A stretch of DNA of 64,000 nt from Deltaproteobacteria bacterium (GCA_022601195.1 JAHZIX010000034.1:18504-82503), one strand, 5' to 3'; shown: positions 3,386 through 55,502, numbered from the stretch's first letter. A program made the numbers and translations. The notes: generated by a model from the letters alone, not told the origin.

Positions 3386-4693
3386 ATGGCAAAATTCATT
3401 GCCTCACTCAGCCTCATCTGCCTATTGGCCCTCGGCGGCCAGGCTTTCGCCGAAATAGGCTCCCTAGATTCCGTCCCTGCGGCGACCTTACTGCTGCCCT
3501 ACTTCGAAGTCGGCCTGGAAAACAGTGGCAGCTCGGTCACCACTCTTTTCTCCGTCAACAACGCCTCCGCCGCACCGGTGGTCGCTCACGTAACCCTGTG
3601 GACAAAACTCGCTCGGCCAACGCTGGATTTCGATGTCTTCCTGACCGGATATGACGTCTACACAGTGAATTTGGCGGATGTGTTTCTGAATGGCTCGGTA
3701 CTTCAAACGCCGATCGCGGACCCAGGTCTGTTCTCCCAACCGAACTTCGTTCCGGGTGGGTGTTCATTCCCCCTACCCGCGAATCTACCCACTTCGCTCC
3801 ACACCTATATCCGAAACCTCCACACCGGCTTGCCAGCCCCCGCGGGCTTCGGTAACTCCGGCCTTTGCGGAGCTCCGGATCAGGGCCTGGCTTCCGCAGA
3901 TGAAGGCGTTGCAACCGGCTATCTCACCATCGACGTGGTCAACGACTGCTCTCTGGCCTTTCCTGGAAATCCCGGCTACTTCGCGGACGGCGGCACCGGC
4001 ATCGCAGCCAATGCCAATGTGCTGTGGGGTGATTATTTCCTCGCCGACCCCAATAACAATTTCGCCCAGGGAGATCAGTTGGTTCATATCGAAGCGATGG
4101 ACTCGGTGCAGGGTGGTTTCTGGTCTCCGGGGGACTACACCTTCTATGGCCGCTACTTGGGCTATGACGCAACTGACAATCGAGAGCCTCTGGCGACCGT
4201 TTGGGCCTCCCGCTATTTCAGCGGCGATGCGGGTCCTTTCAGCGATGACTCGGACATCATCTGTTGGCGCGACACAGGGCTGGATGACAGCTTCTTTTTC
4301 GAGTGTGGCACCACCCCGAACCCGTACCCATTGACCCAGAATCAGATTGTCATTTTCGATGAAGACGAGAACCCCGTAGTGGTCGACGGCCCGGTCTTTT
4401 CTCCTCCGACGATTCCGGATGCCCTGGTCCCTTGCTCCTGCGCCTCAACCCGAGCCAACGCCTCGGACTTCGGAGATATCTTCGACTTTGGATGGTTCTA
4501 CTTGAATCTCAATACCTCGACGGGATCTCTGCAGGATCCCATCAAGCAATCCTATGTGACCACCATTCACAGCGCCTCCGGTCTGTTTAGCGTCGGTTTT
4601 CAGGCGGTTCACCTGGATAGTGCCTTGGACAAGACCTTCACGGTCACCACGGCGCCCGCCAATATCGATCTCGACGAGCCGGAAGAGCCCTAG
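3386..4693 (+). CDS. Secreted protein of an unrecognised family, tandem paralogue A (435 aa)
   Basis: RBS AGAGGAGAA upstream and a signal peptide (LICLLALGGQAFAE). It shares long conserved blocks with the ORFs at 5255 and 6730: VPAATLLLPYFEVGLENSG, LDFDVFLTGYDV, HTGLPAPAGF, WGDYFLADP, GDYTFYGRY, DNREPLAT, QDPIKQS, FSVGFQAVHLDSALDKTF. Confidence 0.7.
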   Translation: MAKFIASLSLICLLALGGQAFAEIGSLDSVPAATLLLPYFEVGLENSGSSVTTLFSVNNASAAPVVAHVTLWTKLARPTLDFDVFLTGYDVYTVNLADVFLNGSVLQTPIADPGLFSQPNFVPGGCSFPLPANLPTSLHTYIRNLHTGLPAPAGFGNSGLCGAPDQGLASADEGVATGYLTIDVVNDCSLAFPGNPGYFADGGTGIAANANVLWGDYFLADPNNNFAQGDQLVHIEAMDSVQGGFWSPGDYTFYGRYLGYDATDNREPLATVWASRYFSGDAGPFSDDSDIICWRDTGLDDSFFFECGTTPNPYPLTQNQIVIFDEDENPVVVDGPVFSPPTIPDALVPCSCASTRANASDFGDIFDFGWFYLNLNTSTGSLQDPIKQSYVTTIHSASGLFSVGFQAVHLDSALDKTFTVTTAPANIDLDEPEEP

Positions 4694-5254: not shown

Positions 5255-6598
5255 ATGCGCAAGCTGTACCCATTTCTCGCTCTTTTGCTCCTAGCTCTAA
5301 CCGTTCCCCCTGTATCGAGAGCCGAGTTGGGGGCGGTCGATGCCGTCCCTGCGGCGACCCTTCTCTTGCCCTATTTCGAAGTCGGACTGGAGAACAGCGG
5401 CGATAGCCGCACCACTCTCTTCTCCATTAACAATGCCAAAAGCGAGTCGGTGGTCGTGCACGTTACGTTGTGGACCATCTTGGCCCGTCCCTCCCTCGAT
5501 TTCGACGTCTTCCTGACCGGCTATGACGTGCAGACCTATAACCTTGCCGACTTGTTCCTGCGCGGCGGTCTGCCCCAAACACCCGTGCTGCCGCCGGGCC
5601 AATTCTCCGAGGACAACGAGGTACCTGCCAGCTGCCAGTTCCCCCTCCCCAACAACTTACCGCCGATTCTTCAAAGCTACCTTCGCAACGTCCATACGGG
5701 ACTCCCGGCCCCTGCAGGCTTCGCCAACGGGGGCCTCTGTGGCGCTCCGAGTCAAGGCGAAGGAGACGCTGGAGATTTCGTTGCCAAGGGCTATATCACC
5801 ATGGATGTCGTCAACGACTGCTCACAGACCTTTCCAGGAGACGAGGGCTATTTTGGAGACGGTGGAACCGGTGTGATTTCCAACAACAATGCCATCTGGG
5901 GCGATTTCTTTCTCGTCGACCCGGACAATGCCTTCGCTCAAGGGGACAATCTGGTTCATATCGAGGCCATGGATTCCGTCGCCGAAGGTTTTTGGGAAGC
6001 CGGCGACTACACCTTTTATGGCCGTTATACGAATTTTGACGGCAGTGACAACCGGGAGCCCCTGGCAACGACCTGGGCGACTCGTTACTTCGCCGGTACG
6101 ACAGGACCTTTTGTTGTTGGGTCGGATCTCTTCGTGTGGCGGGATTCCGCCTTGAACGATAGCGAATTCTTCCAATGCGGCACCATCCCTGCGCCCTACC
6201 CTCTGGAGCAGGAATCGGTCCTCATGTGGGATGAGGAGGAAAATCACGTCTCCATCAATGATTCCCCTTTCTTAACTCAACCAAATCCTTCTTCTTTTCC
6301 ACTTCCTTTGACTCCACCACTCCCTCCTGCTCGGCCATTTCCTCTAGCAGCAGACCGAGTCTCTGTGGCGGAGATCGGACCACTGTTTTTCAATTCAGGT
6401 TGGTTGAGGCTCAATCTCAACTTCTCGACAGGCTCCCCTCAGGACCCCATCAAGCAATCCTTCGTCAGTGCGATGCACAGTGCCTCCGGCCAGTTCAGTG
6501 TCGGTTTTCAAGCCGTCGCTCTGGATAGCGCTTTGGACAAAACCTTTCTGGTAACGACCGCTCCCGAAACCACTGAGCCAGGACTCCCGGGAGTTTAG
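5255..6598 (+). CDS. Secreted protein of an unrecognised family, tandem paralogue B (447 aa)
   Basis: RBS AGGAGGG, signal peptide (LALLLLALTVPPVSRAE), and the same conserved blocks as paralogues A and C. Confidence 0.7.
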   Translation: MRKLYPFLALLLLALTVPPVSRAELGAVDAVPAATLLLPYFEVGLENSGDSRTTLFSINNAKSESVVVHVTLWTILARPSLDFDVFLTGYDVQTYNLADLFLRGGLPQTPVLPPGQFSEDNEVPASCQFPLPNNLPPILQSYLRNVHTGLPAPAGFANGGLCGAPSQGEGDAGDFVAKGYITMDVVNDCSQTFPGDEGYFGDGGTGVISNNNAIWGDFFLVDPDNAFAQGDNLVHIEAMDSVAEGFWEAGDYTFYGRYTNFDGSDNREPLATTWATRYFAGTTGPFVVGSDLFVWRDSALNDSEFFQCGTIPAPYPLEQESVLMWDEEENHVSINDSPFLTQPNPSSFPLPLTPPLPPARPFPLAADRVSVAEIGPLFFNSGWLRLNLNFSTGSPQDPIKQSFVSAMHSASGQFSVGFQAVALDSALDKTFLVTTAPETTEPGLPGV

Positions 6599-6729: not shown

Positions 6730-8124
6730 GTGAACACCATGATGAAACCAGTCCGAACCTGTCGACCGCTGCTGCCGACAGGGCGAGTCATGCCCGTGGG
6801 TCACCGATTCGCAGTGGCCATAGCTTTTTGCGCTTTGATCCTCGCCCCAAAAAACGTTTCGGGAGAGATCGGAGCCATCGACGCTGTGCCTGCCGCCACT
6901 CTCCTCCTGCCCTATTTCGAAGTGGGACTGGAGAATAGTGGGAACACCAGAACCACCCTTTTCTCCATCAACAATGCCAAGGCCGAATCCGTGGTGGTGC
7001 ACATCACGATTTGGACGGTCCTGAGCCGCCCCACCCTGGACTTCGATGTGTTCCTTACCGGATACGACGTCCAGACCTACAACCTGGCGGATCTTTTCCT
7101 ACAGGGCCTGCTTCCTCAAACCCCCATACTCCCACCGGGAGGGCTCTTGCAAGTCCATGACCTTCCTCCGAATTGCACCTTCCCCCTCCCCCCCAATCTG
7201 CCCGTCAACCTCCATACCTACATTCGCAATGCCCACACGGGCCTTCCCGCACCTGCGGGTTTTCAGACCACCGGCCTGTGCGCAGCACCGAGCCTGGGGG
7301 AGGGCGAGGCAGCCGATTTCGTTGCCAAGGGCTACGTCACCATGGACGTGGTGAACGAGTGTTCCTTTGTCTTCCCTCCCGTCGATGGCTATATCGAGGA
7401 TGGGGGATCAGGAATCCTCTCCAACAACAATGCCATTTGGGGTGATTTTTTCCTCGCCGACCCGGACAATGCCTTCGCTCAAGGGGACAACCTGGTCCAC
7501 ATTGAGGCCACCGGTTCCGTCGCCGACGGGTTCTGGGAAGCCGGCGACTACACTTTCTATGGGCGGTATACCGGTTTTGATGGCAGCGACAATCGAGAAC
7601 CGCTAGCCACCACTTGGGTGACGCGATATTTCGCCGCCAGCCGCCCACCCTTTTCGATGGCCTCCGATCTCTTCGTTTGGCGAGGCACGGGGCTGGACGA
7701 TTCGGCCTTCTTCGAGTGCGGCCCCGATCAATGGGATAGTGTGCCGGCTCCCTATCCCCTCGAGCAAAGCCCGGTCTACATCTGGGATGAGGAAGAGACT
7801 GTCGTCGTCTACGACCGTTCCCTCCCCTCTCCCTTCGGTCTGCCACCGTTTTCCGGCACACCTCCCTTTCCCGCTGCCGCATCCCGGGTCAGCCCCGGTG
7901 ACCATACGGATATCTTCGATGCGGGCTGGCTTCGCCTCGACTTCAACCTCGACACGGGCTCCCTTCAAGATCCCGTCAAACAATCCTTCGTCAGCGTGGT
8001 GCACAGCGCCTCGGGGCAGTTCAGCGTCGGCTTCCAGGCGGTGCACTTGGACAGCGCCTTGGACAAGACTTTCCTGGTCACGACGAAGCCGGAGAGCACC
8101 CTCCCTAGGCCACCAGATCCCTAG
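6730..8124 (+). CDS. Secreted protein of an unrecognised family, tandem paralogue C (up to 464 aa; start uncertain: GTG 6730, ATG 6739 or ATG 6790)
   Basis: Same conserved blocks as A and B. The hydrophobic signal segment FAVAIAFCALILAPKNVSGE follows the Met at 6790. Confidence 0.7.
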   Translation: MNTMMKPVRTCRPLLPTGRVMPVGHRFAVAIAFCALILAPKNVSGEIGAIDAVPAATLLLPYFEVGLENSGNTRTTLFSINNAKAESVVVHITIWTVLSRPTLDFDVFLTGYDVQTYNLADLFLQGLLPQTPILPPGGLLQVHDLPPNCTFPLPPNLPVNLHTYIRNAHTGLPAPAGFQTTGLCAAPSLGEGEAADFVAKGYVTMDVVNECSFVFPPVDGYIEDGGSGILSNNNAIWGDFFLADPDNAFAQGDNLVHIEATGSVADGFWEAGDYTFYGRYTGFDGSDNREPLATTWVTRYFAASRPPFSMASDLFVWRGTGLDDSAFFECGPDQWDSVPAPYPLEQSPVYIWDEEETVVVYDRSLPSPFGLPPFSGTPPFPAAASRVSPGDHTDIFDAGWLRLDFNLDTGSLQDPVKQSFVSVVHSASGQFSVGFQAVHLDSALDKTFLVTTKPESTLPRPPDP

Positions 8125-8375: not shown

Positions 8376-11300
8376 GTGCCTTCAGAGAGCCTCTATTTCA
8401 GAGGCGCCTCCTCAGGTCCCCCGAGCCGTCACTCCCTGGTGGCGGGTGATTGGAGTCATGGTCATCGGCAAGAGGCTCAGGGTATGAATCAGCAAGAGGT
8501 ACACACCGGCATGCGCAACTCAGACATTCGGCGTCGAGACCTGGCTCGGCAAGTTCGTGAAATGAGCCTGACCAGTCTCCTCGATCGCTTTCGGGAAGCC
8601 GGTGTTCAACACGCCTTCGTGGTCTTTGAGAACGGTCAGTTCACTCTCTCCCATCCCAAGCTACTGGAACCGCTCCGGGCCTTCATGGAGCTGTCCAACG
8701 ACTTTGCCCGGCACGAGGCGGTGTTCATCGGTACCGAGCCGGGACTGCCAACGCTTTTTTTCGCCTTCGTTCACGACACCCGTAGAGGTCTTTCTCAGGG
8801 AGGACTGCGATACCGCATGTACCAGAGCGTGGCAGAGGTTCTCGAGGATGGCCTCAGGCTCTCTCAGGGGATGACGCGCAAGAACGCTCTAGCTGGTCTC
8901 TGGTGGGGTGGCGGCAAAGGGATTCTTCCCATGACGGATCACATGACCGACCCTTCCTATTTGAAAGAGGGCAGCGACCAACGCCTGGAGGTTTTTCGAG
9001 GCTATGCCCGCTTCGTCGCCAGTCTAGGAGGGGTCTATTACACGGCGGAAGATGTCGGTACAAAGACTTCGGACATGGATGCCATGCTCTCCCAGAATCG
9101 GTTCCAAACTTGTGTCTCCAGTTCGGTGGGAGGGAGCGGAAACCCATCACCAGCCACCGCTCGAGGAGTCTTCTGGGCCATGCAGGCCGCTTGGAGGTTT
9201 CTCACCGGGGAAGAGCGCCTTCAGGGCGTAAAAGTGGCCGTGCAAGGCGCCGGTAATGTCGGCGGAGTCCTGATCGATCTCTTGGACCGAGCTGGAGCCG
9301 AGGTCTGGACCTGCGACGTCAACCAACCGGTGCTCGATGAGTTGGCCCAGCGCCGGCCCGGCGTCCATATCGTGCCGCCGGATGAGATCCTCGGTCTCGA
9401 AGTAGATATTCAGGCTCCTTGCGCCATCGGCGATCAGATCAACGTCCGGACGATCCCTCACCTGAAGGCCAGGCTAGTCTGCGGTGCCGCCAACAACATC
9501 CTCGGTGAGCCTGCGGACGCCGAACGCCTGCGGGAGCGAGGTATCGCCTTTGTGCCCGACTATGTTTGCAATCGCATGGGGATCACCAATTGCGCAGATG
9601 AGTGGCAAGGATATCTGGCAGAAGATGTGGAAATCGCTGCCCAGCGCCTTTACCCGGACACCTTGCGAGTGCTCAAGCACGCCCGCAATCTGGCGATTAG
9701 CACCACGGCTGCTGCCGATGAGCTCGCCGACATCGCTGCCAGTGAGCTTCACCCTTTGTTGGGGCACCGGGGGCGACGGATCATCGATCACTTGATGGCG
9801 AGTGGGTGGCATCGTGCCGGCGAACCCGTGGCCGAGAGAGGCAAGGGGGCTCAAGCAGAGGAAAGACCCAAGGGACCGAACCGGAACGCCTCCAAGAAGA
9901 CGGGCCACGGGACCGGAAGAGAGGTCATTTTTGACCCCGCCTTGGATGAAGCCGAGCAGAGGTTGCTGTGGAAGAGCGGCGGGGCCAAACAGCCAGCCAC
10001 CACGGCTGTGGCTGCCGCGCCTATTCCCACCGACTCCCGCCCCAGTCTCGACGCCTTCCTCTCCAACGTCTTGGCAGACGTCCGAGCTCGGGCTTTGGAA
10101 ATCGACAACGGCCAGCCCTGCCGGCGGGTCATGGGATCGGACCACGGCGGCCTGTCCCTCCAACTCGCCGTGGAACGATCTTTGCCCTACGAAAGAGAAG
10201 AGACGGGTCGGGCCGAGTTCTTTGAGATCTGTCGGGATCTCCACAATGAAAACGACGCGACGGTGCGCGAACACCTGCACAGCTTGGGCATTGGTTTTAG
10301 TCCTCGCGAGTGGCTCGATCCGATGGCCCGCAAGGGCTCTCAAGTGGTCACTCGGCTATTTTTCGCCCTCAAGGATGCTGGCTACTTGCGGTGGGAGAAG
10401 CGAGTCGGGCACCACTGCCCTCGCTGCCAGACGGTCCTGGTCTCCTCTGAGGTCAAACCGACCCTACTCAAGATCGACCGCCGCTACCGCATCGTCTTTG
10501 CCACCGGAGACGGCTCACAGCCGGGGCAAAAGGTCGAGGCCCTGACCTTCTTTCCGGAGCTCTTGGTGGGAGCGGTAGCCTTAGCCGTTCAGCCCCAAGG
10601 CAGGTTTGGCGAAACGGTAGGACAGACCGCGGTCAACCCGGTGACCAACGAGGACCTTCCCATCCTGGCGGTGGATTCCCTGGAAACAGAAGCGGCTTTC
10701 CTGGTCCCCTCCTACAGCCGGGGAGACGAGCGGATCGCCCGCGATCACGGCCTCCTGGCGGCTCCTCCCGTATTCGATGGAGAAGGGCAGGTCTTGTTCC
10801 CCAAAGCACCGGGACAGGCGGTCGAGCCCCTACCCCGCCGACAGGCGCGAGAGGCGGTGCTGGCCCGTCTGGGAGACCGAGCCACTGCCCTAGCGGGCGG
10901 TTGGGTGCTCAATACCCAGCGTTGCCGGCGCTGCGAAACCGTGGTTATCCCCTGCCATTCTGAGCAGCTCTTCGTCCATTTCGGCAGCGCCGTCGACACC
11001 TTGAGGCAAGCTCTGGAATCCGGAGCCGTGACCTTTAGCCACCCGCGCTGGCGAACCGCTGTCGAAGGTTACCTGGACAACCTCGAGCCCCTCTGCATTT
11101 CCCGCCAGCAATGGTGGGGCAACCGAATGCCAGAGGGCACCGAGGAGGTCTTTTCAACTTGGTTTTCTCTCATCGCTTGGTCTCTTCAGGGAGTCGGCTG
11201 GCCCCAGCAGGGAATGCCCGAGCCGGTGGACGAAGTCTTTGTCGACCCGGATCATCTCCTGCGCTGGGTAATTCCTAGCCAACTGGCGTCTCTCGCCCTA

Positions 11301-12227
11301 ACGGGCCGACCGGTCTTCCGACGCATCGCCGTACACGGTGCATTGCACTTAGCGGATCGCTGGCTGCAGCCGATCTCCGGCCAGCCGGCGGACGAACCGG
11401 ATGAGGACCGATTCCTCTATCGTTCTCGCCTGCGCCCAATGCGCCGGCAATTGGGCAATGTGGTGGAGCCTGCCACACTGACTCGACGCTTCGGCACCGA
11501 TGCCCTCCGTCTCGGCTACTTGCTCTGCCTGGGAAGCGGTCGACCGGAAGTCGTCACTTTGGACGAGGGAGCCTTGAGGCGTGCACGACGTGCCCTGCAT
11601 CGGCTCACCGCGCAAATCAGTGGCCTCTATGGGCTTTCCCAGCGGGCTGGTCAAGAAGACCCTAGGCAGCAGCTCGCGGGACAGGCTGCCACGGCTCAAG
11701 TTCTCGATCACTGGATTCTCACCCGCTGTGAATTAGCTGTCGCAGGAGCCCAGAAGGACTACCAAGGGCTCCAACTCGCCAGTGCGGCTCGGCGCTTGGT
11801 GACCTTGGTAGAGGATCTCCGGCGCTACGGTCGCCTGGCCTCAGAGCGCATCGAAGCCGGAAAATCCGTGCCTGCCGTGCGGGCTACCCTCGGCTCTCTC
11901 ATTCCAATCCTTGGGGTTGGGTTCGGGCCCATCTGCCCTTTCACTTTCTCGAAACTCTCTACTTGGGCCCTCGACCGAGGTCTCGAAGCACCCCAGGGTC
12001 CTCAACCGGAAGCCTGGCTCGGGCAATTGGTGGAAGAGCTCTCCCGCCACTCCGGTACGGTTTGCCGTCTCAGCGCCCCGGAAGCTGCGGTGCGGGAGCT
12101 GCTGGCTCGCACCACGACGGAGCTGGTCGGCCTGAGTGGCTCCCAGGTGGAAGTGGTCGATGACGTCGACAGCCCCCACGTCTCCGTAGGACCCTGTCGA
12201 CTCGCCACGGTAAGTGAGTCCAGCTAG
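8376..12227 (+). CDS. Fusion protein: Leu/Phe/Val (Glu/Leu/Phe/Val family) amino-acid dehydrogenase domain plus a ValRS-like class I aaRS body lacking HIGH and KMSKS. The start codon is uncertain; internal Met codons occur near 8478-8510.
   Basis: Dehydrogenase motifs: GGLRYRMY, LSQGMTRKNALAGLWWGGGKG (Lys181, nt 8916-8918), YYTAEDVGT, VAVQGAGNVGG, APCAIG, CGAANN, FVPDYVCN. ValRS-like motifs: GSDHGG, TFFPE (TTRPET position), CISRQQWWGNRMP, FSTWFSL, LGNVVEP..FGTDALRLGYL, and an anticodon-domain-like DHWILTR. Confidence 0.75.
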   Translation: MPSESLYFRGASSGPPSRHSLVAGDWSHGHRQEAQGMNQQEVHTGMRNSDIRRRDLARQVREMSLTSLLDRFREAGVQHAFVVFENGQFTLSHPKLLEPLRAFMELSNDFARHEAVFIGTEPGLPTLFFAFVHDTRRGLSQGGLRYRMYQSVAEVLEDGLRLSQGMTRKNALAGLWWGGGKGILPMTDHMTDPSYLKEGSDQRLEVFRGYARFVASLGGVYYTAEDVGTKTSDMDAMLSQNRFQTCVSSSVGGSGNPSPATARGVFWAMQAAWRFLTGEERLQGVKVAVQGAGNVGGVLIDLLDRAGAEVWTCDVNQPVLDELAQRRPGVHIVPPDEILGLEVDIQAPCAIGDQINVRTIPHLKARLVCGAANNILGEPADAERLRERGIAFVPDYVCNRMGITNCADEWQGYLAEDVEIAAQRLYPDTLRVLKHARNLAISTTAAADELADIAASELHPLLGHRGRRIIDHLMASGWHRAGEPVAERGKGAQAEERPKGPNRNASKKTGHGTGREVIFDPALDEAEQRLLWKSGGAKQPATTAVAAAPIPTDSRPSLDAFLSNVLADVRARALEIDNGQPCRRVMGSDHGGLSLQLAVERSLPYEREETGRAEFFEICRDLHNENDATVREHLHSLGIGFSPREWLDPMARKGSQVVTRLFFALKDAGYLRWEKRVGHHCPRCQTVLVSSEVKPTLLKIDRRYRIVFATGDGSQPGQKVEALTFFPELLVGAVALAVQPQGRFGETVGQTAVNPVTNEDLPILAVDSLETEAAFLVPSYSRGDERIARDHGLLAAPPVFDGEGQVLFPKAPGQAVEPLPRRQAREAVLARLGDRATALAGGWVLNTQRCRRCETVVIPCHSEQLFVHFGSAVDTLRQALESGAVTFSHPRWRTAVEGYLDNLEPLCISRQQWWGNRMPEGTEEVFSTWFSLIAWSLQGVGWPQQGMPEPVDEVFVDPDHLLRWVIPSQLASLALTGRPVFRRIAVHGALHLADRWLQPISGQPADEPDEDRFLYRSRLRPMRRQLGNVVEPATLTRRFGTDALRLGYLLCLGSGRPEVVTLDEGALRRARRALHRLTAQISGLYGLSQRAGQEDPRQQLAGQAATAQVLDHWILTRCELAVAGAQKDYQGLQLASAARRLVTLVEDLRRYGRLASERIEAGKSVPAVRATLGSLIPILGVGFGPICPFTFSKLSTWALDRGLEAPQGPQPEAWLGQLVEELSRHSGTVCRLSAPEAAVRELLARTTTELVGLSGSQVEVVDDVDSPHVSVGPCRLATVSESS

Positions 12228-22670: not shown

Positions 22671-25600
22671 ATGGACACTTCAACCTTACTTCAAGGAGTA
22701 GTGCCTTTGACGATCGAGAGAGAGACGTTTCTCAACAGGCTCAGAGAAGGAGCAGACCTCCCGCGGGTCGCCGCGCAACTTGGGATGAAAGTAATTCGGC
22801 GTGGAACCGAGTCTACTGCGCTATGCCCGTTCCATAACGACCATCGCCCCTCGCTCCGATTCTTTCAAAATCAACGAGGAACTTGGGCCTACAAATGCTT
22901 TGCTTGCGATGCCTACGGGGACGCCTTCGACCTCGTCATGAAACTAGAGGGAACGGCATTCTGGCCGGCAGCAGAATGGTTGGCCCAATTCCAAGGTGTG
23001 CCTGTGCCACCTCGAAGGGTACAAGGGGAAGGGTCGCCACGAACCAGTTTGAGAATCCAAGGCCTCGAGACGGCCCTGGCGGTTTTTCGCTCCGAAACGA
23101 AAACTGAAGGAAAGCTGAGCGAGGCGGAAGCGGAAAGGCGGGGATTCTCAGCTGAGATTTTTCAGGCTCATGAAATCGCCGCAGCCCGGAAACACAAACT
23201 CAGTCGCCATCTCGCACGAAAGAACAAGTCAGCCGGCCACGAGTTAAGAGAGTTGCGCGCGGGGTTCGAGGCTGCGGGGCTCCTGGTTCGCCGCCGGAAC
23301 CGGGACGAAGAAACCCAAGAGCGGTTCGCCTTTGACAACCTAACGGATTTCTTCTGGGATGAAAGGCTTCTCTTCCCAATCCGAGATCACCGGGGGAACC
23401 TCGCGGGTTTCGCTGGACGAGCCCTTGGAGAAGCCTCCAAGCCGAAGTACCTCTACTCCAAGGGTTTCGAGAAAGGAAGGGTGATCTATGGGCTGGACCG
23501 GGTTTTTGCAGACCTTGAAGAAAGGCGGACGGCGGAGCGATCCCGGAAAGGGAAAAAGAGGCCCTGGACCCTAGACCTCTACCTCGTTGAAGGACTCTTC
23601 GATGTCTTGAGACTGAGGGAGCTGGGATTCCAATGTGGCGCGGTGCTCGGCAACAACCTGAGCGCGCACCAAGCTGAGTTAGTTTGCCAGGTGGTTACTG
23701 AGGTAGCGAGGAGCGGTGGCGTTCTAGCAATCCACGTTTTCTTCGACGGGGATGCTGCAGGTCGAAGAGGCGCAAGCCGTGCGCTGGTGGAGCTCTGGAA
23801 GAGCTTTCTCCGCAATGACCTTGCCTCCCTGGTAGATGTAGTTGCCCTCACGACGGAACACTTCCCGAAGAAAGATCCGGATGAGTTTCTTCGCGGTAGA
23901 ACCCGGAAACAAGCGAATGGAGACATATCCGGTCTGGTCGTGCCTGCAACTCAAGCCATTTTGGCGGATCTTCTCGACTCCCCAATCGTGGAGGTAGAGA
24001 GGCAGTGGAACGAGACAGCTCCACCGACTCAACAATGGGTCCTGCAAGGCTTTCTGGAGAAGCTTCCTCGTAAGAAGTGGCGCCAAGTTTTCCAGCGGTT
24101 TCGCCCGCTGGCTACGTCACTAGAGGCCGAGTCCAGCCAGGAGGTATCTTGGCAGAATAGAGTCCGAAGCTTCCTCGGAGTCAACGATCCCGAGGAATTC
24201 TCAGAGCTACCCGCCCAAACCGCCAGGATGTCCGCGGCGGTCCCCACTGAAGTTCTCGAACATAGCGACGAACAGCATCTAGTCCTCGCTCATCAGTTGG
24301 CGATGGCTAGCCGCCACCGGAGGGAGTTCCCTATCGACGAAGCGAGTTGGGAGCGACTGGGTACTGGCTTCGATGCCATAATTCCATTTTACAAGAGTCT
24401 CTTAGAGGACGGCCAAGCAAAAAGGCTGGAGCCTTACCTGGCAGTCTACCTACCCAAAGCGAGTGGGGACCTACGGCTTAAGGCCCTACCTTGCCCGGAG
24501 GACCTGACTCTCCAACAGTACATGCTCAACGAATTGTTGCGCACTTATCCGGAGGACTCAGAGCTTTCCGAGCACATTCCGGCAGTGAGATGGCAACAGG
24601 GACATCTGGTGACGACCGGGTGGAGAGACGGCGGCGAGTTCGGGCTCCGAGAAGGTGCTGTTAGTTTTGCCTACCAGGTCGACATGGATGCCCTAGAGGA
24701 GAGACTCAGGGCGGGCAAGCGAACCCTGTTTCGACCATTTTTTGAATGCTGGAAAGCCTATATTCATTTCCTCTCTCACGGCGTTACGCAATTCGAAGAG
24801 GATCCCCTATACGCACTTCGACTGGATATTCGTGGTTTCTATGACAACCTGCACAGGTCCATCGTCAATGATGCCATTCGGCAACCCCTACAGAAGGCCC
24901 TCAGCCGCGAAGGCTTCGATGCCAACTCCATGGCTCCTCTTTTCGGGAATTCCCATCGAAATCTAGCGTCAAGTTTGGACGAAACGGACCGATCGGCCGA
25001 TACCGATAGTAATGCAGCCGGCGACCGAGCTAACGCGATCGTCGACTGGCTCTGCGAGCAGAGCTTCCACTATCCGTACCGCGATCCCAGCAGCGGCAAG
25101 CAACTCCAGAGTCCACCGGACAGGGGACTTCCTCAAGGACCGGACCTCTCCGCCTATCTTGCAAACATCTCTCTATTCAAACTCGACCAAGCCGTAACCG
25201 AGGCCATCGAACTGCTGAACCAGCGACGAGCAGAACCGACGCAACAAGCGGCCTCCTTGAGTCACACCAGATTCGCATCTGCTGAGCGTCGAGACAAAGA
25301 GCAAGAAACCAGAACGACAAGAACAGCTCTCTACGCCCGCTACGTCGACGATTTAATTCTCATAGCCTGCCAGCCCGGGGAACTCGAGGAACTGCGCAGC
25401 TTGATCGAGCACAAGCTGAGTGAGATCGGCCTATCCTTGAGCCACAAAACGGACCCGCTCCCTCCGATGAGCCGTGGAGACCTGCGCCGTTGGCTCACCG
25501 ACCAAAGGAGTATGGGCGCCGAGTACGGGCCTGTGCCCGGACTCGACCCCTTGCAACTCCTGGCCACTCGTGGATGGGGTGATAGCGGTCTGGAGTTGGA

Positions 25601-28600
25601 CCGGGGAACGGCCCTCCAACTGCTTCATGGCCAAAGTCTTCACGACCTCGAGAAAGCGCCCCAACAAGTCGAAGACTCTATTGCCTTGGCTCGCCAGGCA
25701 GAACTGCGACCAGGAGACGAAGCCGTCGCAGCCAAACTCCTTTGGTTAACTGCAGCCAGCCGAGGAATCGAAGATACAGAGCCGGAGCTACTGGCCCGCC
25801 AAATCAAGGCAAAGTGGCAGGAGTCCAACCCTGCCACGGCTCGAGAGCTTGCCCTGGGAGTTGAGGAACGCTTGATAGAGGAGGAGTTTCAAAGGGCTTG
25901 GCCGGTTCTAGCTTGGCTCGAAGGCCTCATGCTAGCCCTCCGGAGTCGCATGGACCGAAATCTCAAGGCAAGTTCCGAGGAGAAGAAGTCCCTGTCTCGT
26001 CTCCGCGAATCTCTTGCCCGAAAGGTCCAGGAGGGCCTATGTCCAGCCCTGGTCTCACTAGACACCGACCCAAAGCCCTTCGCTCATCAAAAGGCGGCTT
26101 GGTGTTGGGCTCTTCTGAAAGCCGCTGCTGAAGTGGTGGACCCGAAAGACGGCAGCGTGGGATTGAACCAAATGGCGTTACCCTCGCATGAGCTGCACAA
26201 GTCCCCTTTCCTATTCCGACTAGCTTGCTCCTTACATCAACTCTTTCCGATCTCCGACTTTCTCGGGCCTCTCAGATTCCAACCTGGGCCAAACCACAAG
26301 AGCAACGAACATGGGTTGGCCGAGCTGAGGTATTTCCATGAAGCCGTTGCCCGGCTGAGCCGAGGGGAGCTCGACGCTGGCAGGGACGACGCGACTCCCC
26401 TAGACCCCCTCCAGCCCATGGTGTCTTTTCTCTCGAATACCTACAGGGCCAGCGATCCAATAGCCACCGAACTACTGGAGAGCATCCGTTCGTGGCTCCC
26501 TGACCAAGAAGGTGAGGCCCCGAAAGGGAGTGAAGGCTCAACAACGCCCCAGCTGCTGGCCCTTTCTGCCTTTGTCAATGCCGCTGGTAGTCGGACTCCC
26601 CAGTTGTTGTTTCGAAGGAGCTGCTTTCACTCAGTAATACTCGAGACGCACGGATTTGAGGGAGCCAAATTTCTACCAGTGCCTCAGGGAGTGGCCTATC
26701 CTGGCTTACTCGCCATCCAAGAGCAGCGATTGATCGCTTTCCTGTTCGGCCAAGAAGATATCCCCAATAGGTCCGCTTCTGGGCCACCCACATGCCTGAC
26801 CTCGGACTTTCGGCCACGGGAACTCAGGTGGAAAACCAGTGCCAACTCGGGTTTGAATCAACCCCATTGGGACGCTTACGAGACAGATTTGGGCGCCTGG
26901 CGCCTGAGGGAACATGCCGAGATTCCGTTGGTACGCAGAGAGGACCAAGAGAAGGTCCAGGTCCTCACTGAAATTGGTGCGGCTTTCAAGGCTCTAGCAC
27001 GGGGCCAGCAAGACTCTCAGGGCCGGGAACCTGTCCCATCCGCAGCCCACCTACTGAGGCGGCAGCGAATCGACACCGACCAGGGAAGCGAGTGGTCGTT
27101 CCTTGGCTTCGGGCTTCGCCAGGAGGATCTTGGCTACCAGGCCTTCGTAGTGCAAAAGAACTCCGGGAGTTTACTGGCGGAGCCTGTTCCCGCGTCCGGT
27201 GCAGCCCTATGGCGCCTCGGAGTCGCCCTAGGAAACCTTCACCTCGCTTACGATCCCAAATTGGCCGACCCTGCCCACCGACTCAGTGCGAAAGCGCTCG
27301 TTCTGGCACCGCATCAAGATCCAGCCGTGGAGGCCGTCGTGCGCACATCATTAGCCCGACTGGTAGGAGCCTATGCCCCCCTAGGCCCCCTTTACTACTC
27401 ACCTGACGACGCACCTGGCGACAAATTGCCGCAGTCCATCTCCCGAACCCTGAATAGACTGAGTGCATTCAAGCGGGCCTTCGAGGCCAAGGAGACAAAC
27501 CAGACTTTGGCCTTCGCCCTGGCGATCTTCTTCGAGGGCCGGATAGACCGAGAAATCATCCGCCAACAGGAGCTTGAGGTTCGCCAAGGTGGCGCAGCCT
27601 TGGGATTGTTGAAAGCAGTCCGCCACTTGATCGGCGTCGACGCCAAACTCAACGAGGCTCTGCCGCCCCTCCCTTCCCTCCCCAGTTGGTTCCCGAAACG
27701 GCGGCCCGCCCGTGCCTGGCTCGCCATCGCCCAGCGCCTCCGTCAGCTGCCGAAAATCGCTGATCAGGACTTCCTAGAATTCGCCATGGCAGGGTATCGG
27801 CTCCTAGGCCTCCAAGAGCTTCTTCGAGCACAGGCCCTAGAGAGATGGACCACCTTGCCCTCGTCATGGAAGGCCGAGGCCAACTGGAGCCTGGACCTGT
27901 CATTTTGGGGCGTCAACGAAGGAGCCATCCTGGTCGACGATGAGTCCCTGACATCTCCCCTCGACCTCCTTGTTGACTTAGAAGAGCGCTTCTCCCCCGC
28001 CCGCCTAGGAAGCTTGGAACGCATCACTCCCTTGGGCTGGCTGGCGTTGCTCGCAGCCCTCTCTGGAATGACTCCCAACAACGACCGACGGCAGCCACTC
28101 CCGGAGAATGCCGAGACCAAAGCTGTAGAAGGGACCCTGAAAGAGCTTGCATCTCTCCTCGCGGAGCCATGGCAGCTCGAGGAAGAACCGAGAAAGAAGA
28201 GCTTCACTCACCTGGCGAGAACTCTCAAAGGCAACAGTCTTCCAAACCAACCGAACCTGCGAAAGTTTTGCGAAGCTCTCGACTCTTTAGACCGAACACA
28301 AGGCTACAAAGTGCATATCGAAGAGTCGGACCGCCTAGATTCGCGCCCTCGGATCGGACTGGACTGGGAGCTTTTCTCTGACTCCTACGGCGCGAGGGGA
28401 CTTCCCTGCTATAGCCTTCGTCAGCTCCGGTTGGATCCAAGGAATCAGCAAGAAAACTGGGAGACCATTGACGCAGAAGCCGCGAAGTACCGCCTTCAAA
28501 GGCGTGCGAGCCTAACCATCCGAGAAGAGGAACTCGTCGGTGTGGGCTGGCTCTCCCAGGAGATGGCCCACCTGGCTGGGCTCGACAAAGAAGAAAAGAG

Positions 28601-30515
28601 TCAGGAGAACACCCTGGGGCACCCCACTCCACCCCCGGTTCCCTCCGCCGAAGCAGAGTTAACTCCCAAAGCGAAGAGCGATTTACCACCCAAGGAAGAG
28701 CCTCGCGATAAGGCACCTACGGAAGAGCCCCCTGTCCAGGATGAGCCAAGTGCTGACCCAGACTCGGAATCTGAGGGAATCCGGGAGCTACAGCTCAGAC
28801 AACGTGCGGGCTGGAAAACCAGAGGCCAGTCGAAACGACCCAATACCGCTCGAATTGCTTTTCTCCAATGGTCTGTCGAGGAGAGCTATCACCATCCGAT
28901 CTTTGATACCTGCAACAACCTGGAAGCCTGGAACCAACTGACGGAAGCTCGCCAAGAGGAACCGAGGGAGCAGAAAGATGCCAAGTGCGAGATTAAGGGA
29001 CACTTGAAAAAAAACAGAGATCTCCGGAAGAACCTCCGAGGACCTAGGCTCGAGGCTGGAGATTCGCCCAGGAAGCTCCGCAGCTGCGCCGAGCACCGTC
29101 GGCGCAAGATCCTGGCTTCAGCCCTAGAGGCCTGTCACACCTTCGGTGTAGACCTGCTGTTACTTCCTGAGTACGGCATCCGACCGGACACCGTTGACTG
29201 GTTGAAAAGAAGGCTACAGGCCACCACTCAAACCTCTGTATGGGCCGGGACCTATCGGCTGCCCCCTCAGTCGTCTCAAGAAATCGGCCGTAATTCTTCT
29301 TTCTTGCAAGAGCGGAGAGATTGGGAGTCTTGCTTGAGCGCGGTGATTCCGGACCTAAGAACTGGGGGAGAACCGAGAATTCTGCGACGCTCCAAGAAGT
29401 ATCCCGCTCAAGCGGTGAACGAGATCTTCAATCCCCACTCCGACATCATCAAACCCCTCTTTGATCAGAACATTGGGCGGCCCGTCTTCGACCCGCGTCG
29501 ATTCGTTATGGAGCTCATTTGCTCCGAGATCTTCCTGATCACCAGTCCGGCGAATTGGAGATTCCTAGCGGAGGCACTGGGGACATTGATGAGAAAATTC
29601 CGTTGGGATTCCAAAAGCCTAAAGAAAGCATATGAAGATGACGTGATTCAAGACGCAAGCGGCCTTGGAGACTACCTCTCGTACTACTCAAAGACTCAGT
29701 TTCCCAGACGATCGATCCTGCTCGTTCCCGCCATGACCCGGAGGGCCGTTGACTTTGCCGCGCTCGGACAAGCGAGCTACTTATCTGCTGGCATCACGAC
29801 GGTTTTCTGCAATGCGATAGGGAAAGAAGGTATCGGAAACAGCTGTTTTATCGGGCATGGCTGCTGGGACATCGAGGCAAGCAAGGTCCCAAAGAGCGTC
29901 TCTTCGCAAAATCCCTACCATGGTCTGACTCCCGGCATCTTTCGGCAACACGAAGAGGGGCGAGGCTCGCTTGGCAGCAAAGAGCAAGCTCTGGTGATCG
30001 CCGATGTAGATCCGCTGCATTCCATCACCGGCCAGCCGCGCCCCCAATCTCAACCGCCAGCCCTGGAGCTGGTGGCACACTTGCCGATCATCGAGTCTTG
30101 GAAAAAGCGCTACCAGCCCTCTGCGGGAAATCGGGACCGTGCCTCATGCACCTGCGGACGAATGGAATCGGCTGAACTCGATAACAGCAAGGGCTTCAAG
30201 ATAAAAGATCTGGTCGAACGGCTGGAACAGCTCAAAGACATTTCTTCCATCAAAGACAACGACCCGGGGAAGCTCGCGGAAGTCCTGCGAAGCCTCGCTC
30301 ATCGAGCAGGTCACCAGAATGGAGGCTGGTTGCAGAAGCGGGCTGACGCCTATGAGAAGAATCACTTGCAGCATCCGGTACCCTGGCCGCCACCGGTTGC
30401 CATTGACTGGCTTTGGGTCGATCTGGGTCAACCCGGTAACGCGGTTACCTACCCCAAAATCGAGGTTCCTCCTTACTCGAACGCAGCAGGAGAGATTTCG
30501 GAGGAAGAGGAATAG
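22671..30515 (+). CDS. Giant multidomain protein (2,614 aa): DnaG-type primase (zf-CHC2 + core + TOPRIM), reverse transcriptase, long helical region, nitrilase/CN-hydrolase domain
   Basis: Zinc finger [21 protein letters not shown] (nt 22824-22907). DnaG core [45 protein letters not shown] (E307) and [11 protein letters not shown] (D359/D361). RT motifs [37 protein letters not shown] (nt 25341-25352). CN-hydrolase triad candidates LLLLPEYG (E2167), SKKYPA (K2242/3), ELICSEIF (C2284, nt 29520-29522). Confidence 0.9.
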   Translation: [2614 protein letters not shown]

Positions 30516-50705: not shown

Positions 50706-51794
50706 TCAACCCAACACCACTCGGCACTGGGGAGGCGACAGCCGTTCTACGTGAATGGGTACGTCCAAGAATTGTTGGATGAGCCCAATCTGCGTGGTCG
50801 AGTGGCGAGACAGAGGGAGCGTCAGCATCGATCCCGCACCGGCCATGGCCATGGGAACGAGCAGTTGATCCGCCAGGTATTCACCAACGGGCACTCGAGC
50901 TTTGAGAAAGCGTTGCATGGCCTGCACTCCTCGCCCCACCACCGCTTCCGCCCGCACCCCCACCACCCCAAAACTAGAGATGACCTCGGTGACGACTTCC
51001 CCACCTAACTCCAGCAGGACGACATTGCCGGGACCGGCGACGTCGGCAAGCTCTTCCAAGTGAAGATTCTCCTGGGGCCAGCCGGTGCGTTTTTCCAAGT
51101 GCCGCAATTCACGCCTGCCGATGTGACCGGGAAGGTTTGCCACCAAAACCCGGCCTTGCCGACGGCCCACATCACCGACCTCCTCGAGGTCGATCCTGTT
51201 CAAGATTGGACTGGGCTCCACCTGTACCCGGATCTTGCCGCCACCGGCAGGATAGAAGCCGGCCCGCTCTAGCGTCGCCGAGACTCGGGGCCCCATGAGC
51301 TCCAAAGCCGGCAACAGCGATCTAGCAAGAAAGTCGAAGGGGGGAGCTGAGGGGTTGTGAGTCCCTCCCTCCAGCACCAACTCCGACGGGCCGCTGGCCA
51401 CCAGCAGGGCCGGCAATAACGCCTGGACCACCAAGGTCGTGCTGCCCGCGGTCCCCATGGCGTAGGAGTACCGCCCGGGAATCACTGGCCCCGGCTCGAA
51501 TAGGACTTCCGCAGATCCGAGATCGGCCCCCTGGACCTCGGCACGACAAATTTCCTGAGCGGCAACCAGAGCGGTCAGATGCTGCCGAAGGAGACCTGGT
51601 TTGCGGCGACCGGCGCGAATGTTGCGCACCCGAACCGCGTTTCCAGTCACCATGGAGAGAGCGAGAGAGGAGCGAAAGATCTGCCCGCCCCCCTCTCCCT
51701 CGGAACCATCTATTTCGATCCACTGCTGGGTCATCGCTTTCTCACTCGGCACGGCCTCAGCTGATACTCCTTTAGCTGGTACTGGCTCGGCCAA
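50706..51794 (-). CDS. rtcA: RNA 3'-terminal phosphate cyclase (TTG 51794, or more likely ATG 51734)
   Basis: IEIDGSEGEGGGQIFRSSLALSMVTG..VRNIRAGRRKPGLLRQHL is the RtcA N-terminal signature. The gene abuts the rtcB stop. Confidence 0.85.
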   Translation of the reverse strand: MAEPVPAKGVSAEAVPSEKAMTQQWIEIDGSEGEGGGQIFRSSLALSMVTGNAVRVRNIRAGRRKPGLLRQHLTALVAAQEICRAEVQGADLGSAEVLFEPGPVIPGRYSYAMGTAGSTTLVVQALLPALLVASGPSELVLEGGTHNPSAPPFDFLARSLLPALELMGPRVSATLERAGFYPAGGGKIRVQVEPSPILNRIDLEEVGDVGRRQGRVLVANLPGHIGRRELRHLEKRTGWPQENLHLEELADVAGPGNVVLLELGGEVVTEVISSFGVVGVRAEAVVGRGVQAMQRFLKARVPVGEYLADQLLVPMAMAGAGSMLTLPLSRHSTTQIGLIQQFLDVPIHVERLSPPQCRVVLG

Positions 51795-53342
51795 CTAATC
51801 ATCCGCCGGCGCCCCGTCCTTGATGACGAACCGAGCCTCCAGGCGGGCGACCTCCGAGGCGAGACCAGCGACTTTCACCGACCGTAAGACCTCATCGAAG
51901 TCCTTATAAGCAGCAGGAGCTTCGTCCCGCGGGTAGCGCCGGCAGTTGGTCAGGATGTCGCGCTCCTCGAAACTGCGATCGACTTCCTGCTGGTCGAGCT
52001 CTCGAAAGGCCCGACGTCGGCCAAGAGCCCTTCCGGCACCGTGGTTGACGCTGAAGCAAGACCTCTCGGCTCCCGCCTCCGCGGCCATCACGGCAGAGCC
52101 CGCTTGGGGATTCCCGGGAAGCAGAATCGGGTGCCCGGTTTCAGCAAACGGAGTCTCCTTCAACGCATGGTGACCCGCTGGAAAGGCTCGCGTCGCCCCT
52201 TTCCGGTGCACCCACATGGGCCGATTGTCGATCACTTCTTTGCGAGCGATGTTGTGGCTGATGAAGTACACCAGATGCCCCTGGACTCCGGGAATCACCT
52301 CCTGAAAGGCTTCCAGCACCAATGCGTTGATGAGCAGGTGGTTCACCGTCGCAAAGTTGGCACCCAGAGCCATGTCGTTGAGATAGGCATCCGCCTCCGG
52401 CGTCCCCAGAGGGGCATAGACCAGCTGCGGATCTCCTCCTGGAAGGGGAATATCCCAGTTGTCGAACTTCCCTTGCAGGGCCTTGAATTGCCCGGAAGCC
52501 AAGTCGTGACCGAAACCGCGAGACCCACAGTGGGACAGGAAGGCAGCATGGCCGTTCTCGAGGCCGAAGACTTTCGCCCGTTTGCGGGCGACGGAGTTTT
52601 CAGCCACTTTCACCACTTCACACTCACCGAAGTGATTCCCTCCACCGTAGGAACCGAGCTGGCTCATTTTTCCCCGAAAGCGACCTTCAGGAAAACGCGA
52701 GCGCAGCAGATCCAGCCGCTCTAACAGCGTCTCCACCGTTCCATCGTGCCCCTGGTGGGCCGAATCTTCACAGCGCAGGGCCCACTCCGGAGGAATTCCC
52801 AGCTGCTCACAAACCTCTTGGGAAGCCCCTTCCGTGACCACCTGGCTCCCCAGGTCCGGTAGCACCCGGCGAGCTTTCTTGACGTGGCGCTGCCCCCGAC
52901 CAGCACCGGTCGGCACCCGTTCGGCTATGGCATTGATCAGAGCCCGGCGCACCGGTCGATCCACCAGCTGGTCTGCCGGTAGGTCCAGCTGCAGCAAACT
53001 CATGGAGCATTTGATGTCCACCCCCACGGGGCCCGGGTAGATATGGCTCGGTGACGCCAGCACACAGCCTACGGGAGCCCCATAGCCACAGTGAGCATCG
53101 GGGTTGAGGACCAGCTCTTCCACCCCTGGGGCCAGGCGAGAGTTCTGTGCCTGCTGCAAACAGAGGTCATCGAAGCCCGCGCGGATCACCTCGGTACCAA
53201 TAACCGTAATGGGCTTCTTGGCGCCATCTTTCACCGGCAGCAGGGCTGTCGCCTCCCCGGTGGCGACAAAAGGACTGGCCGAGCTGTTTGCCGCTCGAAC
53301 ACTCGTGTTCTGAAAATCCGCTTTCTTGCTAGCCATCACCAA
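51795..53342 (-). CDS. rtcB: RNA-splicing ligase RtcB
   Basis: PDAHCGYGAPVG, GPVGVDIKC, GGGNHFGECEV, SHCGSRGFGH, NHGAGR: the RtcB metal- and GMP-binding motifs. Confidence 0.9.
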   Translation of the reverse strand: MVMASKKADFQNTSVRAANSSASPFVATGEATALLPVKDGAKKPITVIGTEVIRAGFDDLCLQQAQNSRLAPGVEELVLNPDAHCGYGAPVGCVLASPSHIYPGPVGVDIKCSMSLLQLDLPADQLVDRPVRRALINAIAERVPTGAGRGQRHVKKARRVLPDLGSQVVTEGASQEVCEQLGIPPEWALRCEDSAHQGHDGTVETLLERLDLLRSRFPEGRFRGKMSQLGSYGGGNHFGECEVVKVAENSVARKRAKVFGLENGHAAFLSHCGSRGFGHDLASGQFKALQGKFDNWDIPLPGGDPQLVYAPLGTPEADAYLNDMALGANFATVNHLLINALVLEAFQEVIPGVQGHLVYFISHNIARKEVIDNRPMWVHRKGATRAFPAGHHALKETPFAETGHPILLPGNPQAGSAVMAAEAGAERSCFSVNHGAGRALGRRRAFRELDQQEVDRSFEERDILTNCRRYPRDEAPAAYKDFDEVLRSVKVAGLASEVARLEARFVIKDGAPADD

Positions 53343-53403
53343 GCTCCCTCTATTCCTATGACTTCCTGGGTCAACTGAGTTCTATCAGCCCAAACGGCGG
53401 GCG

Positions 53404-53520
53404 CGACGACAAAAATCGAGAAACATTGCTCTACCCCTGAGCTACAGCCGGTTCTCCAAGGAGAGCACGACCGGCGGGATTCGAACCCGCGACCCATGTA
53501 TTTCCTCGGGCATTCGTCAC
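53404..53520 (-). ncRNA. Y RNA-like ncRNA module 1 (YrlA-type with tRNA-like T-arm, closed acceptor-like stem, D-arm)
   Basis: Minus strand, 5' to 3': GACGA-AUGCC-CGAGGAAAUACAUGG-GUC-GCGGGUUCGAAUCCCGC-..hairpin..-GCUCAGGGGUAGAGC-AAUGUUUCUCG-AUUUUUG-UCGUC. The terminal helix is GACGA/UCGUC. It lies between rsr and rtcB. Confidence 0.6.
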
Positions 53521-53566
53521 GCCCGCCGCTGCCGGCAGCACCGGCCTCCCGATGCTGCAAATGGAA

Positions 53567-53698: not shown

Positions 53699-53770
53699 AT
53701 CCAACTCACACTCTTATCAATTCAACTTCTATTCGACAGATCCCGTTTCCAAAACAGAATCATGAAACAA

Positions 53771-53860: not shown

Positions 53861-53889
53861 AAACGAAACCTTGTTCACCCACCAAGGGA

Positions 53890-55467: not shown

Positions 55468-55502
55468 TTTGGGTCCTCCAACTTTCTCGTTCGCTCTAGT
55501 CC

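Follow-up and report, generated by a model that had tools for sequence, protein, structure and literature searches.

Introduction

Dead aminoacyl-tRNA synthetase (aaRS) paralogues that regulate other enzymes, such as HisZ and GCN2, are rare and instructive. In GCN2, an enzyme is fused with a dead, HisRS-like domain that can still bind tRNA and for which uncharged tRNA is the signal. HisZ has no anticodon-binding domain. It is a HisRS paralogue without adenylation activity and mediates the control of HisG by histidine (PMC9437257). In the double-length, pseudo-dimeric TyrRS of trypanosomatids, a class I synthetase is duplicated within the same polypeptide and one copy is inactive (PMC9437257). 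A 2022 review that tabulates synthetase paralogues for many synthetases never mentions ValRS (PMC9437257). Here we analyse a gene in a 64,000-nucleotide stretch of a Deltaproteobacteria bacterium genome (GCA_022601195.1 JAHZIX010000034.1:18504-82503; the window). The gene, at positions 8376..12227 of the + strand, encodes an amino-acid dehydrogenase fused to a ValRS-derived body in which both class I signature motifs are lost.

The fusion protein resembles HisZ in that an adenylation-dead synthetase duplicate is attached to an enzyme of amino-acid metabolism (PMC9437257). HisZ, however, is a class II protein and a separate subunit rather than part of a fusion, and its partner HisG is a biosynthetic transferase, not a dehydrogenase. 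GCN2 differs in being eukaryotic and class II-derived, with a protein kinase as the effector; for the present protein, tRNA binding is a possibility. The trypanosomatid TyrRS is comparable to a triple fusion at one related locus (L001), where a live ValRS follows the dehydrogenase and the dead copy, but its dead copy just completes the dimer and no metabolic enzyme is attached. A dead synthetase paralogue joined to a metabolic enzyme is a known kind of system. For the ValRS-dehydrogenase form, which a preliminary description of this gene did not recognise as characterised, full-text literature searches that covered the fusion itself, paralogues resembling ValRS and a valine dehydrogenase with ValRS found no published description.

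Results

The gene encodes a dehydrogenase fused to a ValRS-derived body

The open reading frame (ORF) at 8376..12227 (+) is uninterrupted, ends with the stop codon at 12225-12227 and, as delimited mechanically, comprises 1283 aa including an over-extension. Two candidate start codons, ATG 8484 and ATG 8511 (8484..8513, +), each have a Shine-Dalgarno-like AAGAGG sequence 8-11 nt upstream. As recorded in the database, the protein is 1247 aa long (P0001) and begins at ATG 8484, whereas an 80% identical orthologue (L080) begins at the equivalent of ATG 8511. The true start is probably one of the two.

From the N- to the C-terminus, the protein consists of a LeuDH-like ELFV dehydrogenase, a disordered linker and the ValRS-derived body. 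Pfam matches above the cut-offs are found for ELFV_dehydrog_N and ELFV_dehydrog at aa 131-413, and for tRNA-synt_1 at aa 562-919 and further. The AlphaFold2 model of aa 50-1249, built with 92 homologues, has a predicted local distance difference test score (pLDDT) of 89.4 and a predicted TM-score (pTM) of 0.87. Only the linker, which is poorly conserved (9840..9914, +; ORF aa 489-513), is disordered, with pLDDT <50 at model residues 440-464. The protein is thus modelled with confidence as a single chain of two modules in a rigid arrangement.

The preliminary description had proposed such a fusion with both class I motifs lost. The single ORF, the Pfam and Protein Data Bank (PDB) matches and the motif counts (0/92) bear this out, and the coordinates it gave for the catalytic Lys181 (nt 8916) and for the sequences at the HIGH position (SLDA, nt 10044-10055) and the KMSKS position (PMRRQ, nt 11436-11450) are all exact.

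The ValRS-derived body has lost the class I signature motifs

Among PDB sequences, the C-terminal 740 aa match Thermus thermophilus ValRS best (1gax, E=7e-36), followed by IleRS. The top Foldseek match is also ValRS 1gax (E=5e-33, 802 aligned columns, TM(target) 0.68). The body (9924..11990, +; 1gax, Foldseek, PF00133) comprises the Rossmann core, Zn knuckles, CP1 and the anticodon-binding helical domain. This class Ia fold, with the CP1 insertion and the helical domain, is recovered both by Foldseek and by HMMER alignments to ValRS and IleRS, which extend through the anticodon-binding domain to aa ~1190. The NCBIfam valS cut-offs are not reached (NF004349, 179.8 vs 704; TIGR00422, 161 vs 612). 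With 1gax the body shares, besides these elements, the CISRQxWWG, TWFS and GADALR motifs. Major differences are the low identity (~23-27%), the absence of PPPNxTG, HIGH, KMSKS and the coiled coil, the degenerate editing motifs and ~24 extra residues before the KMSKS position.

The sequence SLDA (aa 557-560, 10044..10055, +) occupies the HIGH position, where HMMER aligns it with HVGH of IleRS. At the KMSKS position, a family-specific insertion with an invariant DE(D/E)RF is followed by PMRRQ (aa 1021-1025, 11436-11450; whole segment 11400..11450, +), which HMMER aligns with the KMSKS of ValRS (K528-S532) and of IleRS. When 60 family members are aligned to 18 genuine ValRS, both motifs fall in the same registers: PPPNATGTLHxGHA corresponds to aPisaa.rP.L.sf and KMSKSK to RPMRxx. 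Column counts find HIGH and KMSKS in 0/92 family members; all four His/Lys residues and PPPNxTG are gone in 92/92. A displacement of the motifs to another part of the protein, named in the preliminary description as a refuting outcome, is ruled out by the two independent alignments together with these counts. Judged by these losses, the ValRS body is no longer able to bind ATP, form an aminoacyl-adenylate or activate amino acids.

Other parts of the old active site are retained. The segments GSDHGG, TFFPE, CISRQQWWGNRMP, FSTWFSL, LGNVVEP, FGTDALRLGYL and DHWILTR, initially matched to ValRS by eye, do align to ValRS motifs both in HMMER and in the family alignment. GSDHGG (10134..10151, +) is the counterpart of ValRS GTDHAG, whose Asp binds the amino group of the amino acid. 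The stretch from CISRQQWWGNRMP to VFSTWFSL (11094..11171, +) contains nearly invariant residues of the old cleft, as seen from the alignment and column counts. The conserved cleft elements are G-x-[DE]-H-G-G, the Zn knuckles, CISRQxWWG, sTWFs, RW and FGADALRLGYLL, while the ~24-aa insertion before RPMR holds the new invariant DE[ED]RF. Across the 92 sequences, P549, P556, G587, G591-592, SRQ909-911, WWG913-915, W929, RW963-964, DE1009-1010, M1022, G1040, D1042 and R1045 are nearly invariant.

The periphery of the body is less well preserved. The CP1 (editing) domain persists as a remnant (10461..10907, +), with TFFPEL in place of TTRPET and PSYSRGDE in place of PAHDxxD; a functional editing site with a T-rich TTRPET and PAHDxxD is not present in the window protein. 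In a short subfamily of ~1000 aa the whole CP1 domain is absent, and a rough neighbour-joining (NJ) tree suggests that it was lost at least three times independently. The Pfam-matched stretch of the anticodon-binding helical domain (11706..11957, +) scores 22.7 bits against PF08264 (Anticodon_1), just below the cut-off of 25.1, and is helical in the AlphaFold2 model. Beyond it, a poorly conserved tail of ~78 aa (11991..12224, +) takes the place of the ValRS coiled-coil domain. The C-terminal coiled-coil tRNA-binding domain PF10458 has no Pfam match, and the family ends ~80 aa past the helical domain. The claim of a full-length ValRS-like body therefore holds from the core to the anticodon-binding domain; it fails for the coiled coil, which is missing, and for the editing domain, which is degenerate and repeatedly lost.

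The dehydrogenase belongs to an extended ELFV clade

The ELFV dehydrogenase core (aa 131-453; 8766..9734, +; PF02812, PF00208, 6acf, Foldseek) consists of a substrate/dimerisation domain and an NAD-binding Rossmann domain. Both Pfam families score above their gathering cut-offs (PF02812, 44.4 bits vs 25.3; PF00208, 70.8 bits vs 23.4). A PDB sequence search with aa 121-453 finds leucine dehydrogenase 6acf (E=5e-70), and Foldseek matches the N-terminal module to LeuDH and PheDH with TM 0.81-0.89. No NCBIfam equivalog cut-off is reached, the top model being ScyB tryptophan dehydrogenase (211 vs 600). The module shares its fold, ~39% identity and the catalytic set K68/K80/D115/N262 with LeuDH (6acf, 1leh), PheDH and TrpDH/ScyB. 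Lys169 (LeuDH K68) and Lys181 (catalytic K80, in GGGK) delimit the segment 8880..8918 (+) and are both invariant in the 92 sequences. So are D226 (D115), N373/N374 and G291/G293/G296, the last three within the GAGNVG dinucleotide-binding motif (aa 291-296; 9246..9263, +). The catalytic set is intact, as initially described, and the module is probably a competent, NAD-dependent enzyme.

The substrate pocket is different. The main specificity positions of the ELFV superfamily are L40 and V294 of LeuDH, equivalent to K89 and S380 of GluDH, and L40/A113/V291/V294 have been described as the specificity determinants of LeuDH (PMC2723916). In the fusion family these four read Q141/A224/I403/C406, all invariant, and the hydrophobic pocket of leucine and valine dehydrogenases is not conserved. 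Gln141 (8796..8798, +), at the LeuDH Leu40/GluDH Lys89 position, is found in 92/92 sequences. Ile403 and Cys406 (LeuDH V291 and V294) lie in CNRMGITNCADE (9567..9602, +), together with the invariant, clade-specific Arg400 and Met401 that turn the NAGG of LeuDH into NRMG. Since Gln141 and Cys406 are invariant, the substrate cannot be predicted as Leu, Val or Phe. The earlier assignment as a Leu/Phe/Val dehydrogenase is thus correct for the fold and the catalytic residues and too narrow for the specificity.

Compared with LeuDH, the module is also extended by ~60 aa at the N-terminus, has an insertion that follows GGGKG and carries an HPLLGHRGRR tail at the C-terminus. The N-terminal extension is predicted to form a small α/β unit of ~56 aa (8523..8690, +; AlphaFold2 residues 1-56, pLDDT >90) that ordinary LeuDHs do not have. 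The conserved C-terminal extension reads ELHPLLGHRGRRIIDHL (9744..9794, +). The N-terminal unit, the insertion and the tail (HPLLGHRGRRIIDHL) are the hallmarks of an 'extended' ELFV clade, and the N-terminal unit is common to standalone members of this clade. At the 50% identity level, an exhaustive search returns ~8 fusion clusters, then standalone proteins of 410-530 aa with the hallmarks, then ordinary LeuDHs of ~350 aa. Some of the standalone extended dehydrogenases (P0283, P0285, P0303, P0314, P0319) carry long N-terminal leaders resembling organelle presequences, which suggests that the clade has eukaryotic members. The idea that the N- and C-terminal extensions are ValRS-docking elements is weakened, as standalone relatives carry both, some of them with these apparent presequences.

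The fusion is widespread and conserved by selection

In a search of 5.8 billion proteins, >120 protein clusters share the fusion architecture, at 46-65% identity. The proteins are named 'class I tRNA ligase family protein' at NCBI and 'valyl-tRNA synthetase/.../leucine dehydrogenase' at JGI, names that are misleading for function prediction. Among species-representative genomes, the fusion occurs in metagenome-assembled genomes (MAGs) only. These hosts include Acidobacteriota (Thermoanaerobaculia, Holophagales, Pyrinomonadaceae, Blastocatellia), Sericytochromatia/Blackallbacteria, Planctomycetota, Wallbacteria, Calditrichota and Cloacimonadota, among others, and KSB1 is a further source of the protein clusters; the closest relatives of the window fusion are Thermoanaerobaculia-like.

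A sequencing error or assembly artefact that joined two genes, raised in the preliminary description, is ruled out by the >120 independent clusters with the same fusion. Two apparent standalone pseudo-ValRS genes, P0121 and P0125, are themselves artefacts of a run of Ns (L080) and a frameshift (L081).

In searches that use just the dead body as query, no family member falls below 354 bits and no true ValRS exceeds 140 bits. In 91 genome pairs with a fusion and an adjacent valS, the mean identity is 69% for the dehydrogenase, 52% for the dead body and 67% for the true ValRS, and the identities of the dead body and the true ValRS are correlated (r=0.90). The dead body evolves ~1.5x faster than true ValRS, an essential enzyme. 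These comparisons indicate that the dead body is under purifying selection and far from neutral evolution.

One Thermoanaerobaculia MAG (SMAG_U6924) contains two fusion paralogues (L045 and L047). The long form has CP1 and no valS neighbour; the short form is without CP1 and is translationally coupled to valS.

The fusion gene is linked to valS and tRNA-Val genes

A genuine valS gene is found next to or near the fusion gene in ~24 of 55 related loci, often with translational coupling. It follows the fusion gene immediately, and on the same strand, in 13 of them (L007, L009, L010, L016, L032, L036, L037, L040, L044, L046, L047, L053, L058), and lies 2.5-7.6 kb downstream in L011, L014, L015, L021 and L022, and upstream in L039. 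The stop codon of the fusion and the start codon of valS share a 4-nt overlap in L046 and L047. In L001 the dehydrogenase, the dead ValRS and a complete ValRS (NF004349, 1063 bits vs the cut-off of 704) form an in-frame triple fusion. The preliminary description had asked for a canonical valS elsewhere in the genome, and one is directly adjacent to the fusion in ~20 related genomes; the window itself contains neither valS nor branched-chain amino-acid genes in its 64 kb. As a canonical valS coexists with the fusion in related genomes, the fusion is not the ValRS of the cell.

The partner valS genes are of two unrelated types, a bacterial 'KPET' variant and an archaeal-like alt_ValS (L022, L035, L050). 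The bacterial variant (L007-L059) carries PPPNATGTLH[L/T]GH and KMSKSKPETxxDP, without the usual 'GN' after KMSKS; in Acidobacteriota and Thermoanaerobaculia, the ValRS that is commonly annotated is of this variant. The dead paralogue retains LGNVVEP, unlike this partner.

Dehydrogenase-only members of the clade are located directly upstream of valS in L050, L055 and L059, and L050 and L055 branch below the fusion clade in the rough NJ tree. Near ordinary LeuDH genes, valS was found at 0/20 loci. Wallbacteria (L028, L030) lack a nearby valS; there, the fusion gene overlaps, at its stop codon, with a gene for tRNA-Val(GAC). A general enrichment of tRNA genes near the fusion was not found, and the Wallbacteria tRNA-Val alone stands out. 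In L002, the end of ileS is separated by 4 bp from the fusion gene that follows. This gene context indicates a selected linkage with the genes of valyl-tRNA synthesis and suggests that the fusion protein is functionally tied to this process.

Other conserved neighbours are lineage-restricted, as in Sericytochromatia (hybrid histidine kinases and a CAP-domain protein). In one acidobacterial clade, a hybrid sensor histidine kinase (GAF-HisKA-HATPase-REC-Hpt) is encoded between fusion and valS (L011 13619-15499; L014 8217-10493; L015 13709-15991). A second conserved ValRS paralogue is divergent from the fusion gene in L046 (7198-9801, -) and L035 (7340-9838, -), so that three ValRS-related genes stand side by side there. 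These paralogues are 68% identical to each other and keep LHIGH intact, while KMSKS is changed to RMST[S/A]R.

Neighbourhood of the fusion gene in the window

In the window, the neighbours of the fusion gene give no hint of its function. It is preceded by a dnaE fragment and three unannotated ORFs, and followed by an extracytoplasmic function (ECF) sigma/anti-sigma pair, for which synteny is limited to the close relative L080. The three ORFs are consecutive, encode 435-464 aa on the + strand (3386-4693, 5255-6598, 6730-8124) and have no Pfam match. Promoter and terminator scans near the fusion gene give background levels. RNA leaders or riboswitches were not found near it, and the Rfam matches of the window are two YrlA RNAs 40 kb away.

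These RNAs belong to a complete Rsr/Y-RNA/Rtc cluster at 50706-57303. On the - strand it contains rtcA (50706-51794), rtcB (51795-53342), a tandem pair of YrlA Y-RNA-like genes (53400-53520, 53564-53698; Rfam, 72 bits) and rsr/Ro60 (53890-55467), whose product has TROVE and vWA domains. The sigma-54 activator gene rtcR (55666-57303, +) is divergent from these. A 'tRNA-Arg(acg)' called by ARAGORN at 53465-53548 overlaps the YrlA genes and their spacer, and is probably not a real tRNA. A further ORF of 2614 aa (22671-30515, +) combines, in the N-terminal third covered by the domain scan, a DnaG-type primase (Zn ribbon, DnaG_N, Toprim) with a reverse transcriptase (RVT_1 at aa ~794-925).

Discussion

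Our best explanation, which we hold tentatively and at somewhat less than even likelihood, is that the dehydrogenase is tied to valyl-tRNA synthesis through the dead ValRS body, acting as a binding or regulatory module. The first module is an ELFV amino-acid dehydrogenase of LeuDH-like fold from the distinct extended clade. The second is an old duplicate of a bacterial ValRS that keeps the Rossmann core, the cleft-lining residues and the anticodon-binding helical domain. It may recognise valine, tRNA(Val) and/or ValRS itself, and could couple the dehydrogenase activity to the valine or tRNA(Val) charging state, with a logic as in HisZ-HisG or GCN2. We infer a ligand and allosteric coupling by analogy with these two systems, and also infer in which direction the dehydrogenase would run. 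The preliminary description had suggested that the body recruits a tRNA(Val)-like RNA or senses branched-chain amino acids; both ideas are conjectural, though now backed by the linkage to valS and, in Wallbacteria, to tRNA-Val(GAC). A valine-family substrate for the dehydrogenase is a guess from the gene context. The specific scenario in which the dead body reads tRNA(Val) charging or free valine and gates the dehydrogenase, perhaps in complex with the housekeeping ValRS, is doubtful. The protein has two features of a regulatory pseudo-synthetase. It derives from an aaRS, has lost the adenylation and aminoacylation motifs, and is under purifying selection. Its stable association with an effector is given by the covalent fusion itself, found in >120 clusters and modelled with a pTM of 0.87. 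For a third, binding of the cognate amino acid or tRNA with an effect on the dehydrogenase, the linkage to valS and tRNA-Val and the conserved cleft are indirect evidence.

Several points weigh against this explanation. The position of the amino-group-binding Asp is occupied by D in 58, E in 26 and N in 6 family members, so the valine pocket may not be preserved. The Gln/Cys pocket of the dehydrogenase likewise argues against a plain aliphatic substrate. The coiled coil that helps ValRS to hold tRNA is missing from the dead body. The charge of the body, considered as a possible sign of RNA binding, is not notably basic (median pI 6.7). In about half of the loci, valS is absent from the surrounding 10 kb; these include the window, all loci of Sericytochromatia and all of Planctomycetota. 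The adjacency to valS could also be, in part, a relic of the tandem duplication that gave rise to the dead copy.

The same linkage may be read without regulation. The dead body, or the dehydrogenase itself in the dehydrogenase-only operons, might dock to ValRS and/or tRNA(Val), and valine from the reductive amination of 2-oxoisovalerate would then be made at the charging site, in a transamidosome-like manner. The translational coupling, the in-frame triple fusion with valS and the dehydrogenase-only members directly upstream of valS, seemingly basal to the fusion clade in the rough NJ tree, are in line with such channelling. We nevertheless consider it unlikely: valine is a freely diffusing small molecule, ValRS is normally monomeric, an adjacent valS is missing at half of the loci and the specificity pocket is not like that of LeuDH or ValDH. 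It is also possible that the body binds no ligand and persists as a structural relic, serving as a scaffold for the folding, oligomerisation or stability of the dehydrogenase. This would fit the repeated loss of the editing domain (at least three times) with retention of the gene, as well as the 1.5x faster evolution relative to true ValRS. However, conservation is centred on the old cleft and the new invariant DEERF...RPMR rather than on the core only, the anticodon-binding domain is kept across phyla, and the systematic linkage to valS and tRNA-Val is unexpected for a mere scaffold; we regard a scaffold role as quite unlikely.

The strongly conserved cleft, with its new invariant acidic and basic residues D1009, E1010, R1012 and R1020-R1023, and the rigid two-module arrangement predicted by the model could instead indicate a neofunctionalised site with ATP-independent chemistry, whose substrate might, for example, be valyl-tRNA or else a 2-oxo or hydroxy acid made by the dehydrogenase. 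To our knowledge there is no precedent for such chemistry on a class Ia body. The dehydrogenase retains K169 (LeuDH K68), which binds the free α-carboxylate, and therefore probably uses free amino acids. A new activity of this kind is improbable. The overall ValRS fold and the few 'standalone' halves in the databases might suggest a working ValRS with non-canonical motifs, or else a pseudogene or assembly artefact. But the His and Lys residues of HIGH and KMSKS and PPPNxTG are absent in 92/92 sequences, genuine valS coexists in many genomes, >120 intact fusions are under purifying selection, and the standalone halves are due to Ns (L080) or a frameshift (L081), which leaves this option close to negligible.

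For the fusion as a dehydrogenase tied to valyl-tRNA synthesis, a plausible history can be proposed. An extended dehydrogenase would have become a neighbour of valS; valS would then have been duplicated, and the proximal copy would have fused to the dehydrogenase and lost catalysis.

The uncharacterised ELFV clade with its Gln/Cys pocket may be of interest for chiral amine and amino-acid synthesis. The fusion occurs in at least six phyla known almost solely from metagenomes and is linked to valS of two types, and it therefore offers a direct way to test whether amino-acid redox metabolism is coupled to tRNA charging in bacteria. If the specific scenario of a gated dehydrogenase is true, no pseudo-synthetase derived from ValRS, and no tRNA-synthetase-like sensor joined to a dehydrogenase, would have preceded this one. 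Amino-acid catabolism or synthesis would then be balanced directly against the demand of translation, by a bacterial counterpart of GCN2 and HisZ that originated from ValRS.

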